A DNA stretch of 34,597 nucleotides, from the NCBI GenBank assembly GCA_023484305.1, contig JAMDAL010000012.1, positions 1-34,597 of the forward strand, written 5' to 3'. The position numbers and the translations under genes were made by a program. This stretch comes from Patescibacteria group bacterium (GTDB lineage Bacteria; Patescibacteriota; Microgenomatia; JACPZF01). The first letter of the stretch is position 1. Each line of letters opens with the position of its first letter. Of the stretch, positions 29,383 through 34,251 are shown in pieces. Below the pieces are notes generated by a model. The model had not been told where the DNA came from. It did not search any database and worked only from the letters and a program-made list of their open reading frames with translations.

Positions 29383-30204
29383 TTATATTGATATAGATTC
29401 CCGTTTACACGGGAATGACAAAGTTATATTTTTCTTTAAAATTTTTATGGGACCGTCTATTTTGGCAGAGATGAAATATTGACTGTTTTTCTTAACCGAA
29501 ACATAAATTCGCTTACAAGACGGTTGAAGAACAGGAAGGCTATCCACAATTATTTGTTTTTGAGAAAGGTAAAGACCTACAGCTGTTGTTCCGCTGGCAC
29601 AGGCAGTTTCATAGAAAAATGTTTTTATATCCCGTACCCAAACAACCGGCTCAATCGCATAGAGTCCGTTTTTCTTGTATAAAAACATCACTCCGGAGGC
29701 CGGCACAGAAGTTATAAGTCCAAGCTGTTTTAAGATTTTTAATGCTTCTTTTTTAGCCTTTTGCTGATTTATAAATTTTTCTTTTTTCTCAACTATCACA
29801 AGGGTTATACCGTAAAGCGGTATTATCATGTAATTATCTTGGTAAGAAATAACTTTCGGATTTTTATAAATTGGCATTTGGGCCCAAGCAGTATTTTTTC
29901 CTGATACTCCGGCCTTTAACAGGCGATTAACGCCAGAAACTTTTATTTCAGTTTCTCCAGGCAGTCCTTTTAGCGCCAGAAAAACTGTTGACCTTGTGGC
30001 GTTTCCACAAAATTCACCACCTGCCATTTGTAATTCAGGTTTTGAAAGGTCAATAAAACCCACCTGTTCAACGTTTTTATATTTTTTCATAATTGTGTCA
30101 TTAATAATTTTTTTCTCTTCCATTGATCTATTAATTCCCAAAACCAGAGCAGTGTCATTACCCCCCGGTTTGACAATAGTGATGTTGGAAATAATTTTTT
30201 TCAT
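29383..30204 (-). CDS. DapF-fold (diaminopimelate-epimerase-like) PLP-independent two-cysteine racemase/epimerase homologue
   Basis: 273 aa from the ATG at 30204, preceded by the strong Shine-Dalgarno AAGGGGGA (the track start at 30294 would overlap the tRNA). VKPGGNDTALVL corresponds to the GxGNDF block. GGEFCGNATRS corresponds to the first catalytic Cys block (CGNGxR). YETACASGTTAV corresponds to the second Cys block. Substrate is unknown. Confidence 0.6.
   Translation of the reverse strand: MKKIISNITIVKPGGNDTALVLGINRSMEEKKIINDTIMKKYKNVEQVGFIDLSKPELQMAGGEFCGNATRSTVFLALKGLPGETEIKVSGVNRLLKAGVSGKNTAWAQMPIYKNPKVISYQDNYMIIPLYGITLVIVEKKEKFINQQKAKKEALKILKQLGLITSVPASGVMFLYKKNGLYAIEPVVWVRDIKTFFYETACASGTTAVGLYLSQKQIIVDSLPVLQPSCKRIYVSVKKNSQYFISAKIDGPIKILKKNITLSFPCKRESISI
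29396..29419. repeat. Family A hairpin gattcccgtttacacgggaatgac inside the 3' end of the DapF-like ORF
   Basis: It is near-identical in sequence and flank (atatagattcccg...cgggaatgacaa) to 24552-24575. It encodes the terminal ...SFPCKRESISI. Confidence 0.8.
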
Positions 30205-30225
30205 AAAAATCCCCCTTTTACTATC

Positions 30226-30241
30226 AATACATCGATGTATT
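30226..30241. promoter_or_regulatory. Perfect 16-bp palindrome AATACATCGATGTATT between tRNA-His and the DapF-like Shine-Dalgarno
   Basis: The sequence is self-complementary. It may be an operator or an RNA processing hairpin. Function is unknown. Confidence 0.3.
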
Positions 30242-30251
30242 AGCAGTAAAC

Positions 30252-30327
30252 TGGGGTGGTGTACGGGAGTCGAACCCGCTAAAACTGCCTCCACAGGGCA
30301 GCGCCTGACCGTTTGGCATACACCACC
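30252..30327 (-). tRNA. tRNA-His (anticodon GTG) with genomically encoded G-1 and 3' CCA
   Basis: The manual cloverleaf has G-1 opposite C73 and an acceptor stem GTGGTGT/ACACCAC. The D stem is GCC(A)/(A)GGC. The anticodon stem CTGCC/GGCAG carries the loop CT-GTG-GA. The variable loop is TTTTA. The T arm is GCGGG-TTCGACT-CCCGT. The 3' end is C73-CCA. Confidence 0.9.
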
Positions 30328-30382
30328 AAAAAACCTCCCGTTCTTTGTCGATCATAAAAAATGATAAACAAGGAACGAGAGG
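30328..30382 (-). terminator. Intrinsic terminator of the T-box leader
   Basis: RNA sense: CCUCUCGUUCCUUG (30382-30369) pairs with CAAAGAACGGGAGG (30347-34), giving 12 Watson-Crick pairs, 1 G-U and 1 mismatch. An inner AUCAU/AUGAU extends the helix, and UUUUUU follows (30333-30328). The U-tract abuts G-1 of tRNA-His. Confidence 0.75.
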
Positions 30383-30600
30383 TAACAAAAAAGGACCTCC
30401 CGCGGTCCCATCCTTAAATTCCTAGAAGCTTTTTTCTTCTAAGCTCTTTGGTCGGCTCCGCGCTTCATTTAAACTTGCGACACCGGCTGTTGTATTTTTA
30501 CGGTTCAACTTCCGTAGAGCATTTTGGCTCTCAACTCCTGGATCGTGACTCCAGTAAAACGTTTTTATTTCGTAAGAAACAAACTTGTTTCTTAAATTGT
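30328..30600 (-). promoter_or_regulatory. Candidate T-box riboswitch leader, histidine-specific (short Stem I type)
   Basis: The T-box-like core is AAUUUAAGGAUGGGACCGCGGGAGG (30420-30396), compared with the consensus AAUUAGGGUGGNACCGCG. In the antiterminator, helix A1 is AAGGA (30415-11) / UCCUU (30374-70). The 7-nt bulge is UGGGACC (30410-04). Helix A2 is GCGGGAGG (30403-30396) / CCUCUCGU (30382-75). The A1/A2 3' strands form the 5' strand of the terminator. The Stem III-like hairpin is CUUAGAAG-AAAAAAG-CUUCUAGG (about 30421-30443). The hairpin CUGGA-GUCACGA-UCCAG (30554-30538) displays CAC. Confidence 0.65.
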
Positions 30601-30607
30601 AAAAAGA

Positions 30608-30637
30608 ATATTAACACAAGCTGTCAACTTTTGTCAA
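30608..30637 (-). promoter_or_regulatory. Sigma70-type promoter TTGACA-N17/18-TTAATAT driving the T-box leader
   Basis: Minus-strand sense: TTGACA (30637-30632), a 17-nt spacer, then TTAATA/TAATAT (30614-30608). It starts one nt after the stop codon (30639-30641) of the upstream gene. Confidence 0.55.
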
Positions 30638-30638
30638 A

Positions 30639-31385
30639 TTATTTAGCCTTGGGAGTGAGTGTCGGTGTGGGAGAAGAAGCTGTAGTCGGTTCTTTTAAAA
30701 TAATAATTCTTAAAGTTGATAAAAGAGTTTGTCCGTCTTTAGTTGTTTTTCCTATAAAACCAAAAACGTAAACAGTCTGGCCCTTTTCCAGTTGGGAAAA
30801 CCCGGATTTGGCAAGTTTATTGCCGTTGCCTATGGTGTAAGTCCGGGTGGGCGGATTAACGTCAAAAAGATAAGAAATATCCTTACCATTAGATGTCATG
30901 AGAAATTGATAATTCTTTTTATCAACAGATTTAATCTGTCCCGCCAAAAACTGGGGCATATCTCTTAAGACAACGCTGTCTGCGGTTAAAGTGTCGGTTT
31001 CTTTGTTAAAATTTCCCCAGGCAATAAGGTTATCACCGGTATTTAAGTCGCCAATTTTTAAGGTTTTGCTGTTATTGTTTTGGTCAACTCTGGAAAGCGC
31101 GGTATCAGACCCGATTTCCACATCAATATCATTATTGTTGCTGTTAAGGATTATTTTCTGATCGGAAAGGGTTTTTATGGTTCCGGCGATAGCCTGCGGC
31201 GAAAGAATTTTAAGCTCTGCGACCTTGGTGGCAATTTTTTGTTTCAGCTCTGTAATCTGCTGATCTCTGGTTTCTGATGGGGTTGCGGTTTGGGAAGCAG
31301 AGTTTTGAGCAAAGCCTGTCTTGGACGGCATAAAAATTATAATGGTTATAATTATTATAAAGGAAACAAGTACGTTTTTTTTCAT
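30639..31385 (-). CDS. Secreted hypothetical protein (signal peptide, beta-rich repeats, Pro/Thr tail)
   Basis: The ATG at 31385 (MKKNVLVSFIIIITIIIFMPSKTGFAQ) gives 248 aa. It overlaps the upstream stop by 4 nt (ATGA). The track start at 31442 is an extension. Confidence 0.65.
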   Translation of the reverse strand: MKKNVLVSFIIIITIIIFMPSKTGFAQNSASQTATPSETRDQQITELKQKIATKVAELKILSPQAIAGTIKTLSDQKIILNSNNNDIDVEIGSDTALSRVDQNNNSKTLKIGDLNTGDNLIAWGNFNKETDTLTADSVVLRDMPQFLAGQIKSVDKKNYQFLMTSNGKDISYLFDVNPPTRTYTIGNGNKLAKSGFSQLEKGQTVYVFGFIGKTTKDGQTLLSTLRIIILKEPTTASSPTPTLTPKAK

Positions 31386-31858: not shown

Positions 31859-31887
31859 TTGTCAAGAAAAGGAAGCTGTGGTATAAA
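31859..31887 (+). promoter_or_regulatory. Promoter TTGTCA-N17-(TGg)TATAAA, ending 10 nt before the ATG at 31898
   Basis: The -35 lies in the palindrome CTTGTCAAG. On the other strand this reads TTGACA, followed by N17-TAAGTT for the divergent gene at 31822. Confidence 0.45.
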
Positions 31888-31897
31888 ACCGATACAT

Positions 31898-32542
31898 ATG
31901 GAAATAACATCTTTAGGCCATTCTTCTTTTAAAATCCGCGGCAAGAGCGCCAGCGTGGTTACGGATCCGTTTGATCCGGAGTTTACCGGCTTAAAATTCC
32001 CCCAGGTAAACGCTGATATCGTTACCATCAGCCACCGTCACAACGACCATAATTATTTAAAAGGAATATCCGGCGAACCTTTTGTTGTTGACGGTCCCGG
32101 AGAATACGATGTCAAAGGTATAAGCATTTTAGGTTTATCGACATTCCACGATGATAAAAAGGGAAGCGAAAGAGGCAGAAACACCGTTTATGAAATCAGA
32201 ATGGACGGGTTGAGCCTGGTGCATCTTGGCGATTTAGGCGAGGTTTTAAGTGACGAATCGGCAGAACAGCTGGACGGAGTCGATCTTCTTTTTGTGCCGG
32301 TTGGCGGTTATTACACATTGGCCACGGACAAACTGCAGGAAGTTATAAACAAGCTGGAGCCGAAAATAATTATACCCATGCACTATAGTCGTTCCGGATT
32401 AAAACCAGAATTATCTTCTAAACTTGCCACCGTGGAGGAATTTTTAAAAGCTATGGGAAAAACGGAAGTTATGCCGCAGGATAAACTGGTGATAAGCAGG
32501 GATAAGTTGGGAGAAGAAACACAGATAATCGTGCTTAAGTAA
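31898..32542 (+). CDS. MBL-fold metallo-hydrolase (UPF0173-like)
   Basis: MEITSLGHSSFKIRG...ISHRHNDHNY contains the HxHxDH motif. It is about 214 aa from the ATG at 31898 (the track start at 31859 is a TTG). Confidence 0.8.
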   Translation: MEITSLGHSSFKIRGKSASVVTDPFDPEFTGLKFPQVNADIVTISHRHNDHNYLKGISGEPFVVDGPGEYDVKGISILGLSTFHDDKKGSERGRNTVYEIRMDGLSLVHLGDLGEVLSDESAEQLDGVDLLFVPVGGYYTLATDKLQEVINKLEPKIIIPMHYSRSGLKPELSSKLATVEEFLKAMGKTEVMPQDKLVISRDKLGEETQIIVLK

Positions 32543-32735: not shown

Positions 32736-34073
32736 ATGTCCGACCTTAAAGTTCCTCCTCACAGTCTGGAAGTTGAGCAGTCAGTTTTGGGCGCCATTCT
32801 TATTGACAAAAACGCCGTTGTGGAGGTGGCGGGGTTTTTGCTGCCCGAACATTTTTACGAAAACAGCCACAGTCTCATTTTTTCCGCCATGCTTTCCTTA
32901 TACGAAAAAAGGGAACCAATCGATCTGGTTACCATTTCCGAAGTTTTAAAAAAGAAAAAGGCCCTGGAAGATATAGGAGGAGTGGCTTATCTTTCCGAGC
33001 TGGCAGCTAAAGTTCCCACCGCTTCCCATGTGGAAAACTACGGCCATATAGTTAAAGACTACCATACTAAAAGAGAGCTGATTAAACAGGCAGGGAAAGT
33101 TGTGGAATGGGCTTTTGACATGGCCTCCGATGTTAAAGACGTTCTGGATAAAACCGAGCAGAGCATTTTTTCCATATCGCAGGCTCATCTGACGCAAAAT
33201 TTTGTGCAGCTGTCAGAAGCATTGGCGGAAAGCTTTGACAGGCTGGATGAAATTCAGAAAAAATCGGGAAGTTTAAGAGGGGTGGCCACAGGATTTAAAG
33301 ATATTGATAATAAACTGGCCGGTTTGCAGCAGTCTAATCTGGTGGTTTTGGCTGCCCGTCCCGGTATGGGAAAAACGGCATTGGTTCTGAATATTGCCCA
33401 AAACGTGGCTGTTAAGGAAAAACAGGCAGTGGGAATTTTTTCTCTGGAAATGAGCAAGGAAGAAGTCGTGGATAGGCTTTTGGTGGCTCAGGCTGATATA
33501 GACGCCTGGAGGCTTAAAACCGGAAAACTGGAAGAAGAAGATTTTGACAAGCTGCAGGAAGCGATGGGAGTTTTGGGAGACGCGCCGATTTTTATTGACG
33601 ATACCCCTGGCGCTTCCGTTATGGAAATGAGGACAAAAGCCAGAAGACTGCAGGTTGAACACGGTCTCAAGCTGTTAATTGTGGACTATCTCCAGCTGGC
33701 TTATGCGGGGAAGAATTTTGAAAACCGGGTCCAGGAAGTTTCCTATGTTTCCCAGAGTTTGAAAAATCTGGCCAGAGAGCTTAAAATTCCCGTACTGGCA
33801 GTTTCGCAATTGTCCCGGGCAGTGGAAGCGAGGGGAACCAAAATTCCGCAGCTGGCTGACTTGCGGGAGTCGGGAGCCATTGAGCAGGATGCAGACGTTG
33901 TAATGTTTTTATACCGGCCGGAGGAGGAAGAGGGGAGCGAAAAAAACGTCACGCAGTATCCCATGAAACTTCTTGTTGCCAAGCACAGAAACGGCTCCTT
34001 GGGAGAAATTGATTTGATGTTTAAGGGCGACAGGGTCCGGTTTTTTGGTATGGAAAAGAGAAAAGCGAGTTAA
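32736..34073 (+). CDS. dnaB: Replicative DNA helicase DnaB
   Basis: 445 aa with the N-terminal PPHSLEVEQSVLGAIL, Walker A ARPGMGKTA, Walker B LLIVDYLQL, and the SQLSR and ESGAIEQDADVV motifs. Confidence 0.95.
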   Translation: MSDLKVPPHSLEVEQSVLGAILIDKNAVVEVAGFLLPEHFYENSHSLIFSAMLSLYEKREPIDLVTISEVLKKKKALEDIGGVAYLSELAAKVPTASHVENYGHIVKDYHTKRELIKQAGKVVEWAFDMASDVKDVLDKTEQSIFSISQAHLTQNFVQLSEALAESFDRLDEIQKKSGSLRGVATGFKDIDNKLAGLQQSNLVVLAARPGMGKTALVLNIAQNVAVKEKQAVGIFSLEMSKEEVVDRLLVAQADIDAWRLKTGKLEEEDFDKLQEAMGVLGDAPIFIDDTPGASVMEMRTKARRLQVEHGLKLLIVDYLQLAYAGKNFENRVQEVSYVSQSLKNLARELKIPVLAVSQLSRAVEARGTKIPQLADLRESGAIEQDADVVMFLYRPEEEEGSEKNVTQYPMKLLVAKHRNGSLGEIDLMFKGDRVRFFGMEKRKAS

Positions 34074-34078
34074 AAATC

Positions 34079-34163
34079 GCCACGGTGCTGGAATGGTAGA
34101 CAGGCCAGTCTCAAAAACTGGTGGTGATAAAACACCGTGAGAGTTCGAGTCTCTCCCGTGGCA
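34079..34163 (+). tRNA. tRNA-Leu (anticodon CAA), long variable arm, CCA not encoded
   Basis: The acceptor stem is GCCACGG/CCGTGGC with A73. The anticodon stem CCAGT/ACTGG carries the loop CT-CAA-AA. The variable arm is GGTG-ATAAAA-CACC. The T arm is GAGAG-TTCGAGT-CTCTC. Confidence 0.9.
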
Positions 34164-34251
34164 CAAAAACCTGGGATGTAAAGCTAATACCACCCCCCGG
34201 GGTGTAAGATTGGGGGCGAAAAAAGTAAGGAGAAATTTTATCTTCCTTGCC

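Follow-up and report, generated by a model that had tools for sequence, protein, structure and literature searches.

In this study, we analysed a stretch of 34,597 nt from a Patescibacteria group bacterium (contig JAMDAL010000012.1, assembly GCA_023484305.1; in the following, the window), whose minus strand carries at 30637–30328 a leader that is a real T-box, as shown by its full-length alignment to the Rfam T-box model RF00230 and by the strong covariation seen across over 100 homologous leaders. A sequence-only reading had proposed a complete T-box on this strand, and promoter, leader and terminator/antiterminator pair could indeed all be found. We consider it highly probable that the leader functions as a histidine-specific T-box without the elbow platform of Stem I, which would act by transcription attenuation and gate the gene of its own ligand, tRNA-His, together with histidine-supply genes. 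Unless noted otherwise, all features described below lie on the minus strand.

Architecture and covariation of the leader

Searched at permissive thresholds against positions 30150–30750 (601 nt), RF00230, the model named as a check in the sequence-only reading, was not silent but aligned over its full length (model positions 1–219) with 35.9 bits and E = 2.4e-6. In this alignment, the 76 nt of Stem I in the model are matched by 7 nt, and about 40 nt are counted as an insertion. The low score is explained by a Stem I of 5 bp with a 7-nt loop. At the Rfam gathering threshold, two tRNAs alone were reported and not the T-box, and among seven relatives compared to RF00230 two reached 43–46 bits and five had no match at E up to 0.01. 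Since these scores lie below the gathering threshold, standard annotation misses the element and its family. The T-box core GGNTGGNACCGCG has one exact occurrence in the window, where 0.20 occurrences with up to one mismatch are expected by chance. The core by itself is thus weakly significant, and the case for a T-box rests on the whole architecture. Folding had also been suggested as a check: the 273-nt leader has a minimum free energy (MFE) of −86.6 kcal/mol, with z = −5.2 compared to dinucleotide shuffles, and terminator and antiterminator states could both be computed.

Homologous leaders were obtained from a metagenome scan with a pattern of the antiterminator in which the N of UGGN was left free (at least 120 stretches) and from a genome scan with an alignment of the racemase encoded downstream (80 loci). 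Two more leaders, in loci L203 and L205, were found without the antiterminator, through homologues of histidyl-tRNA synthetase (HisRS) together with R1, a model of the decoding module that is independent of the antiterminator. The sequence-only reading had suggested covariation in A1, A2 and the terminator as a check. With these sequences, covariation was observed for Stem I, Stem II, Stem IIA, Stem IIB, an extra hairpin, Stem III and, within the terminator, the upper stem; the antiterminator helices A1 and A2 are invariant and give no evidence either way.

Measured from Stem I to the antiterminator, the leader has a length of about 190 nt, and it opens with a decoding module of about 82 nt. 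Its first element is an ultrashort Stem I (30563–30533, 98 bits with R1), composed of a base helix AAC/GUU (30563–30561 with 30535–30533), which flanks an internal loop resembling a GA motif, a covarying 5-bp helix CUGGA/UCCAG (30554–30550 with 30542–30538) and a 7-nt apical specifier loop GUCACGA (30549–30543), in which CAC (30547–30545) sits at the centre and is followed by a purine. CAC had been described as the only histidine codon of the leader; it is the sole one located in a loop, but not the sole such trinucleotide, as a CAU occurs in the terminator stem. Throughout the family, the specifier CAC is followed by an invariant G in the apical loop. In the 5-bp helix, the four outer pairs changed on both sides, as did two of the three pairs of the base helix. 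Of a classical long Stem I with K-turn, S-turn specifier side loop and AG-bulge/loop platform, the GA-motif-like base alone remains.

Stem I is followed by a mini Stem II, AGAGC/GCUCU with the hexaloop CAAAAU (30531–30516; 16 nt, 5 bp), with compensatory changes in all five pairs and invariant A residues in the loop; RNAalifold alone finds four of these pairs, each with compensatory changes. The module closes with a pseudoknot (30515–30489), in which the covarying Stem IIA, ACGG/CCGU (30515–30512 with 30503–30500), is combined with Stem IIB, where the loop sequence GUUG (30509–30506) pairs with CAAC (30492–30489). In the family, Stem IIB appears as GUUG:CAAC, GUUU:AAAC or AUCU:AGAU, with both-side changes in all four pairs. 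In alignment A4, which covers the module in 46 sequences with the pseudoknot included, 91.2% of cells are paired compared to 63.8% after shuffling, and the covariation score amounts to 0.694 compared to 0.173, with slid controls at 0.151 or below; both-side changes occur in 18 of 21 pairs. RNAalifold without a given structure recovered the base and the helix of Stem I together with Stem II and Stem IIA, with 12 of 14 pairs compensatory. A comparison of the three leaders of the window and of the racemase-scan loci L007 and L008 already reveals such changes, located in Stem I, Stem II and the pseudoknot.

Between the pseudoknot and Stem III, an extra hairpin specific to the family was found (30485–30453), with helices 30485–30482/30456–30453 and 30480–30477/30461–30458 and a conserved internal loop. 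It is this stretch that the RF00230 alignment counts as an insertion. As helix 7 of alignment A3, which holds 89 distinct leaders, the hairpin has 77.5% of cells paired and both-side changes in five of eight pairs. The RAG motif AAGAG (30448–30444), which reads (U/A)(A/G)AGAG in the family and is described in PMC11297988, precedes Stem III (30443–30436 with 30428–30421). Stem III was misaligned by MAFFT (42% paired), and per-sequence folding was used instead: 65 distinct segments folded singly gave a median of 8 bp and a median z of −3.2.

At the 5' end, the sequence-only reading had placed a promoter TTGACA-N17-TAATAT. Both hexamers are present (TTGACA at 30637–30632, the −10 element at 30613–30608), the spacer, however, measures 18 nt instead of 17. 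The promoter is of sigma-70 type with 10 of 12 matches, and a TG one base 5' of the −10 element extends it to TGnTAATAT. Promoters with at least 10 of 12 positions lie just 5' of Stem I in 70 of 102 distinct family members. Between transcription start and Stem I, the window additionally contains a perfect 9-bp hairpin, AAGAAACAAGUUUGUUUCUU (30594–30573), present in both the MFE and the centroid fold. Other family members do not share this hairpin, which is particular to the window; in alignment A2 its positions are gap columns in L007 and L008, with no counterpart aligned.

Expression platform, histidine specificity and the adjacent tRNA gene

The antiterminator (30415–30370) is built from helix A1, AAGGA (30415–30411) with UCCUU (30374–30370), the bulge UGGGACC (30410–30404) and helix A2, GCGGGAGG (30403–30396) with CCUCUCGU (30382–30375), so that the 5-bp A1, 7-nt bulge, 8-bp A2 and 13-nt loop of the sequence-only reading were all recovered. 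The T-box sequence AAGGAUGGGACCGCG (30415–30401) agrees with the consensus AGGGUGGNACCGCG in 13 of 14 positions, and the G-to-A change is compensated by UCCUU in the 3' strand of A1, as had been noticed before. The intrinsic terminator (30382–30328) pairs 30382–30369 with 30347–30334 below an upper stem-loop and ends in U6 (30333–30328); the 14 positions previously assigned to its stem consist of 13 pairs and one C·A mismatch. Since 30382–30370 is used by terminator and antiterminator alike, the two folds are mutually exclusive. Computed energies are −38.4 kcal/mol for the terminator state and −13.9 to −14.8 kcal/mol for the antiterminator. A terminator that far outweighs the antiterminator is typical of T-boxes, where the tRNA must stabilise the antiterminator.

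This platform is retained in the family. A terminator 3' strand with a U-run behind it was found in 64 out of 105 distinct expression platforms, and the conserved strands pair in 63 of these 64. The 64 distinct upper terminator stems are all different in sequence and all fold, with a median z of −5.2. In A3, 82.8% of cells are paired compared to 70.2% after shuffling, and the covariation score of 0.340 (0.116 shuffled) was reached by none of 500 shuffles, with slid controls at 0.144 or below. About 60% of the family is of the terminator type, and a terminator with U-run is missing from about 40 of the 101 distinct relatives. Those non-terminator platforms that were inspected or folded carry GGAGG and a start codon where the 3' strand of A1 can pair, so that the family holds both transcriptional and translational members.

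An additional terminator-like structure was observed inside the antiterminator loop, where GGGACC/GGUCCU forms an inner hairpin followed by a U-run (30409–30387, −10.8 kcal/mol). This hairpin sequesters UGGGACC, the bulge that binds the tRNA acceptor end. In the corresponding columns 258–290 of A3, an inner hairpin of at least 5 bp with a U-run of at least four residues recurs in 71 of the 77 distinct members, translational ones included, and some members use the alternative register GACCGC/GCGGUC. It may cause pausing or early termination, or act as an anti-antiterminator.

From the UGGG of the bulge, a tRNA-His with C73 had been predicted, and the gene next to the leader is a tRNA-His(GUG) (30327–30252, body 30326–30252; identified with ARAGORN and Rfam) with C73 and an encoded CCA. 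The tRNA starts one base after the U-run, G-1 (30327) directly following U6, a neighbourhood that the sequence-only reading did not contain. Because the tRNA gene abuts the U-run, transcription that reads through reaches the ligand gene before any other. Histidine specificity is further borne out by the family. At least 130 pattern matches were obtained over all loci, and among the matches listed 123 read UGGG and seven UGGU. Around 110 of the 123 listed UGGG matches carry AGUCACG(A/C) 105–155 nt 5' of the core, mostly at 120–140 nt, and all specifier loops identified in this way present CAC and no other codon. The seven UGGU matches were rejected as family members, being GC-rich, unrelated T-boxes with a long Stem I. 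Screening of about 1.6 Mb of sequence with R1 gave no T-box of the same architecture with another codon. The cognate tRNA lies next door, and hisS, histidine biosynthesis genes and a racemase similar to HisR/CntK are found downstream.

The arrangement of leader and tRNA gene is not restricted to the window. For 61 distinct terminator-type leaders, sufficient downstream sequence was available, and 28 of them (46%) are followed on the same strand by tRNA-His, with no tRNA of another type directly after any of the 61. Measured between the last U and tRNA position +1, the spacing amounts to 1 nt (G-1 by itself) in eight of these 28, and it does not exceed 17 nt in 21. The linked tRNAs represent 31 distinct sequences; G-1 occurs in 31 of the 32 regions, and of 19 cases that could be resolved, 18 have C73.

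We propose a model in which transcription would start at the TTGACA-N18-TAATAT promoter and the nascent leader would fold into the compact decoding module, with CAC in the apical loop of the 5-bp Stem I, Stem II with its A-rich loop and the IIA/B pseudoknot, followed by the extra hairpin, Stem III together with the RAG motif, and the discriminator, which bears the UGGGACC bulge. Uncharged tRNA-His(GUG) is expected to pair with CAC through its anticodon and with UGGG through its 3' end C73-C-C-A, which would stabilise the weak antiterminator (about −14 kcal/mol) against the terminator (−38 kcal/mol). RNA polymerase would then pass U6 into tRNA-His, the racemase-like gene, two open reading frames (ORFs), hisS and EamA, while charged His-tRNA-His would be unable to stabilise the antiterminator, and transcription would stop at 30328. 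With the ligand as the first regulated gene, this amounts to positive feedback, in which uncharged tRNA-His would lead to more tRNA-His, and the loop would be closed by co-induced HisRS and histidine supply. Here we infer tRNA binding, read-through and the dependence of tRNA-His expression on read-through from sequence. The conserved inner hairpin with its U-run might constitute a programmed pause or early stop that offsets the missing elbow platform.

Several points weigh against this model. All evidence is computational, taken from the conservation of sequence and structure, and the RF00230 score is far under the gathering score of 93. The distal platform of Stem I, the interdigitated double T-loop motif (IDTM), is absent, and transcriptional T-boxes are reported to generally require a long Stem I platform for fast tRNA capture (PMC7583486). 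In the K-turn-like motif, the 5' GA reads UA in the window (UA/GA), and Stem II is too short for a canonical S-turn. Helices A1 and A2 never vary in the relatives found and thus provide no covariation support; they are fixed by the search pattern in most relatives and are invariant also in L203 and L205, both located without that pattern. On the side of the ligand, C73 normally pairs with G-1 in mature tRNA-His (PMC7778990), so that formation of the fourth bulge pair may need to compete with this interaction. Finally, a second tRNA-His gene elsewhere in the genome is possible.

It is conceivable, though in our view unlikely, that the T-box is real and tRNA-His, perhaps with the operon, is transcribed from an internal promoter in the expression platform, in which case the leader would attenuate upstream transcripts only and autoregulation would not occur. 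An essential tRNA placed behind a terminator of −38 kcal/mol seems risky for the cell, and a weak promoter-like sequence TTGTTA-16-TATCAT with 9 of 12 matches indeed lies at 30388–30361 within the antiterminator/terminator region. However, matches of this stringency occur at chance rate, and the −10 element of the site falls into the upper terminator stem, whose sequence differs in all 64 distinct members. No equivalent site exists in L007, L105 and L128, and in eight independent leaders G-1 directly follows the U-run, leaving no space for a separate promoter. Its lack of conservation among the relatives led us to reject the site as the main source of the tRNA.

We see very little room for a switch that in the window works chiefly at the level of translation, RNA processing or RNA stability and not of termination, for example via access of RNase P or RNase E to tRNA and mRNA, in analogy to the relatives that sequester the Shine-Dalgarno sequence. 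Such a mode would fit the roughly 40 of 101 distinct relatives without a U-run terminator, those inspected placing GGAGG and a start codon at the 3' strand of A1; in the window, in contrast, a canonical terminator of 13 pairs ends in U6, what follows is a tRNA and not a Shine-Dalgarno sequence, and the racemase start codon follows 124 nt further downstream. Weaker still is the notion of a degenerate relic, a constitutive tRNA-independent attenuator or plain terminator in which loss of platform and S-turn abolished tRNA binding: the low RF00230 score, the missing IDTM and the platform requirement given for transcriptional T-boxes (PMC7583486) speak for it, but specifier loop, A-rich Stem II loop, pseudoknot, RAG motif and bulge are kept with compensatory changes in over 100 divergent leaders, beside histidine genes CAC and UGGG are retained without exception, and the leaders carry their own promoters (10 or more of 12 positions in 70 of the 102 distinct members).

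Family range and comparison with known tRNA sensors

Coming back to the histidine T-box and its relatives, the genes regulated there comprise histidine biosynthesis operons (hisG-hisD-hisC-hisB-hisH), hisS, EamA and the racemase. In L203 (Candidatus Gottesmanbacteria RIFCSPHIGHO2_01_FULL_39_10), the T-box is followed by tRNA-His, hisG-D-B-(HAD)-H-A/F-I-E, hisS and EamA, and in L205, which encodes a Levyibacteriota HisRS, by a small ORF, hisS and EamA. Loci L149 and L094 show T-box, tRNA-His, hisG, hisD, hisC and a HAD-type gene, with hisB and hisH added in the longer sequence of L149. From the 80 loci of the racemase scan, two carry the T-box: L007, where it is followed by tRNA-His and the racemase, and L008 (Microgenomates bacterium), where it stands directly before the racemase. 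R1 found no T-box in the flanks of the other 78, so that the T-box is not tied to the racemase gene as such. All named HisRS and racemase relatives belong to Patescibacteria. L007 (CAZJNI010000011.1), which also shares the order T-box, tRNA-His, racemase and hisS with the window, and several other 'binchicken' loci are titled 'uncultured Gammaproteobacteria' or 'Micavibrio', and their racemases rank among those of Patescibacteria metagenome-assembled genomes; the taxonomy labels of L007 and the other 'binchicken' loci are probably wrong.

In six loci (L086, L092, L095, L096, L129 and L173), near-identical histidine T-boxes of the type that sequesters the Shine-Dalgarno sequence face each other in pairs at a distance of about 3.5 kb. 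These pairs enclose a racemase homologue, and one T-box per pair drives a hisG-like ORF (VDKKLNKENLKIAIQKDGRL...). A different situation is encountered in L201 (7730–7900, the same in L202), whose HisRS is the closest relative on a long contig, with 75% identity and the same synteny, and where no T-box precedes hisS. Instead, a promoter, a short ORF MKTLSLLLHHRHAE ending in a stop codon and then CCGGCUGGUG ... CACCAGCC AAAC GGCUGG UUUUUU stand before hisS, which looks like ribosome-mediated attenuation at histidine codons in place of the T-box.

Compared to class I transcriptional T-boxes (RF00230, for example Firmicute hisS and tyrS), the window shares the 7-nt antiterminator bulge (GGAUGGGACCGCG versus the consensus GGGUGGNACCGCG), the mutual exclusion of antiterminator and terminator, a specifier that matches the pathway and a UGGN that matches the discriminator. 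The IIA/B pseudoknot, Stem III with the RAG motif, the GA-motif-like base of Stem I and an aminoacyl-tRNA synthetase gene in the operon are likewise common to both. In contrast, Stem I of the window lacks the S-turn specifier side bulge, the AG bulge and the distal-loop elbow platform; Stem II is reduced to 5 bp with a hexaloop, and the extra hairpin as well as the hairpin with U-run in the antiterminator loop come in addition. The host belongs to the Candidate Phyla Radiation (CPR), an affiliation that the sequence-only reading had guessed and that the named HisRS and racemase relatives support, and the first regulated gene is that of the ligand's own tRNA. To our knowledge, no T-box with its own tRNA ligand as the first regulated gene has been described. 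The literature searched contained no report of a T-box associated with a histidine racemase or located before a tRNA gene, which is not proof of absence.

The sequence-only reading had drawn a parallel to the ultrashort Stem I of ileS T-boxes from Actinobacteria, which were reportedly described by Sherwood, Grundy and Henkin in 2015. This likeness holds for the specifier in the apical loop, but not for the mode of action, which is transcriptional in the window. Specifiers in the apical loop belong to the short Stem I of mostly actinobacterial, translational T-boxes, and structures of ileS T-boxes from Mycobacterium tuberculosis (Mtb) and N. farcinica are available as 6UFG and 6UFM (summarised in PMC7583486). 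Both types present their specifier, CAC in the window, followed by a purine in the apical loop, lack the elbow platform and rely on Stem II and IIA/B, and a subgroup of the histidine family likewise sequesters the Shine-Dalgarno sequence. Unlike the ileS elements, the window and about 60% of its family end in an intrinsic terminator, a combination not expected according to PMC7583486. Stem II comprises 16 nt in the window compared to a domain of about 70 nt with S-turn and a string of five purines in ileS, and specificity (histidine versus isoleucine), host phylum and regulated genes differ as well. The element is therefore set apart from classical T-boxes on two criteria, platform and Rfam threshold, and from the ultrashort class on two more, the translational mode and the long Stem II with S-turn. 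With attenuation by leader peptides of the hisL type, it shares the sensing of tRNA-His charging and the control of read-through before histidine genes; in the window, however, there is no leader peptide, and sensing is proposed to proceed by direct RNA–tRNA contact.

Whether the family goes further and constitutes a distinct T-box lineage is, in our judgement, evenly balanced. Such a lineage would be common in CPR of the Microgenomates type, stay below the Rfam threshold and operate transcriptionally without elbow platform or S-turn Stem II, for which the extra hairpin and the inner hairpin with U-run may compensate. By gating its own tRNA-His, it would act as a self-amplifying starvation switch, which co-induces HisRS together with histidine biosynthesis genes or, in the window, with scavenging genes for racemase, peptidase-like protein and transporter. 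Class II T-boxes were sought by TBDB in Actinobacteria only (PMC7778990), and gene regulation in Patescibacteria/CPR is described as virtually unknown (PMC11665869). In agreement with the sequence-only reading, which knew of no well-described T-box in CPR, no such report was found in the searchable literature, which again does not prove absence. The family thus offers a concrete and widespread cis-regulatory RNA for CPR, with R1 as a model to find more, and, being of the terminator type without a platform, it renders the kinetic argument of PMC7583486 directly testable. If the proposed feedback holds true, this would be a rare riboswitch whose own ligand is made under its control in a positive loop. 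As a compact natural tRNA sensor of about 190 nt, the element could possibly be of use for engineering.

The operon downstream of the leader

Downstream of tRNA-His, the first protein-coding gene (30204–29383) encodes a PLP (pyridoxal phosphate)-independent racemase similar to HisR/CntK and to histidine racemase (PF26317). It matches NF052224 with 1e-29 and NF033599 with 5e-20, both under the equivalog cut-offs, and the histidine racemase of PDB entry 9cr6 with 6e-18; the catalytic cysteines C66 and C202 are invariant. From these similarities, a role in the salvage of D-His to L-His is inferred, and the operon content points to histidine salvage as a role of the widespread PF26317 racemase-like proteins. 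Domain fusions were observed in this protein family: P0161 is a 624-aa fusion of HisRS with a PF26317 racemase-like domain, which supports a functional link of the racemase family to histidine or tRNA-His metabolism, and in P0014, P0022, P0037, P0040 and P0052 a GNAT acetyltransferase is fused to the racemase domain.

The racemase is followed by an ORF of 460 aa (29376–27994) to which no family could be assigned. It gave no Pfam, NCBIfam or PDB match, one homologue is detectable among 5.8 billion database proteins, weak tblastn matches occur at the same position in L007 and L008, and the AlphaFold2 model, with a pLDDT of 39.9, is unusable. The next gene (27949–26957) encodes a protein of the M29/NicX fold (weak PF02073 match; NicX, PDB 7cn3, 4.5e-7), possibly an aminopeptidase; the syntenic M29-like gene in L204 is annotated PF26233/PF02073. 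The histidine–tRNA ligase gene hisS (26844–25612; TIGR00442 with 336 bits at a cut-off of 286.75) and a transporter of the EamA/DMT family (25513–24545), which adjoins hisS in all relatives, complete the series. Between 30252 and 24545, no minus-strand promoter-like site exceeds 9 of 12 matches, with the total number equal to the shuffle expectation, and all terminator-like sites on this strand lie inside the EamA ORF. The string from tRNA-His to EamA is thus not interrupted by a convincing promoter or terminator.

On the other side of the leader, the plus strand carries Lactamase_B_3 (31859–32542), DnaB (32736–34073) and tRNA-Leu(CAA) (34079–34164). DnaB and tRNA-Leu(CAA) also flank hisS-EamA in L201, L202, L204 and L205, and Lactamase_B_3 does so in L201 and L202 only. 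Depending on the lineage, the space between the DnaB block and hisS is occupied by a histidine operon, the racemase cassette, restriction-modification genes or nothing.

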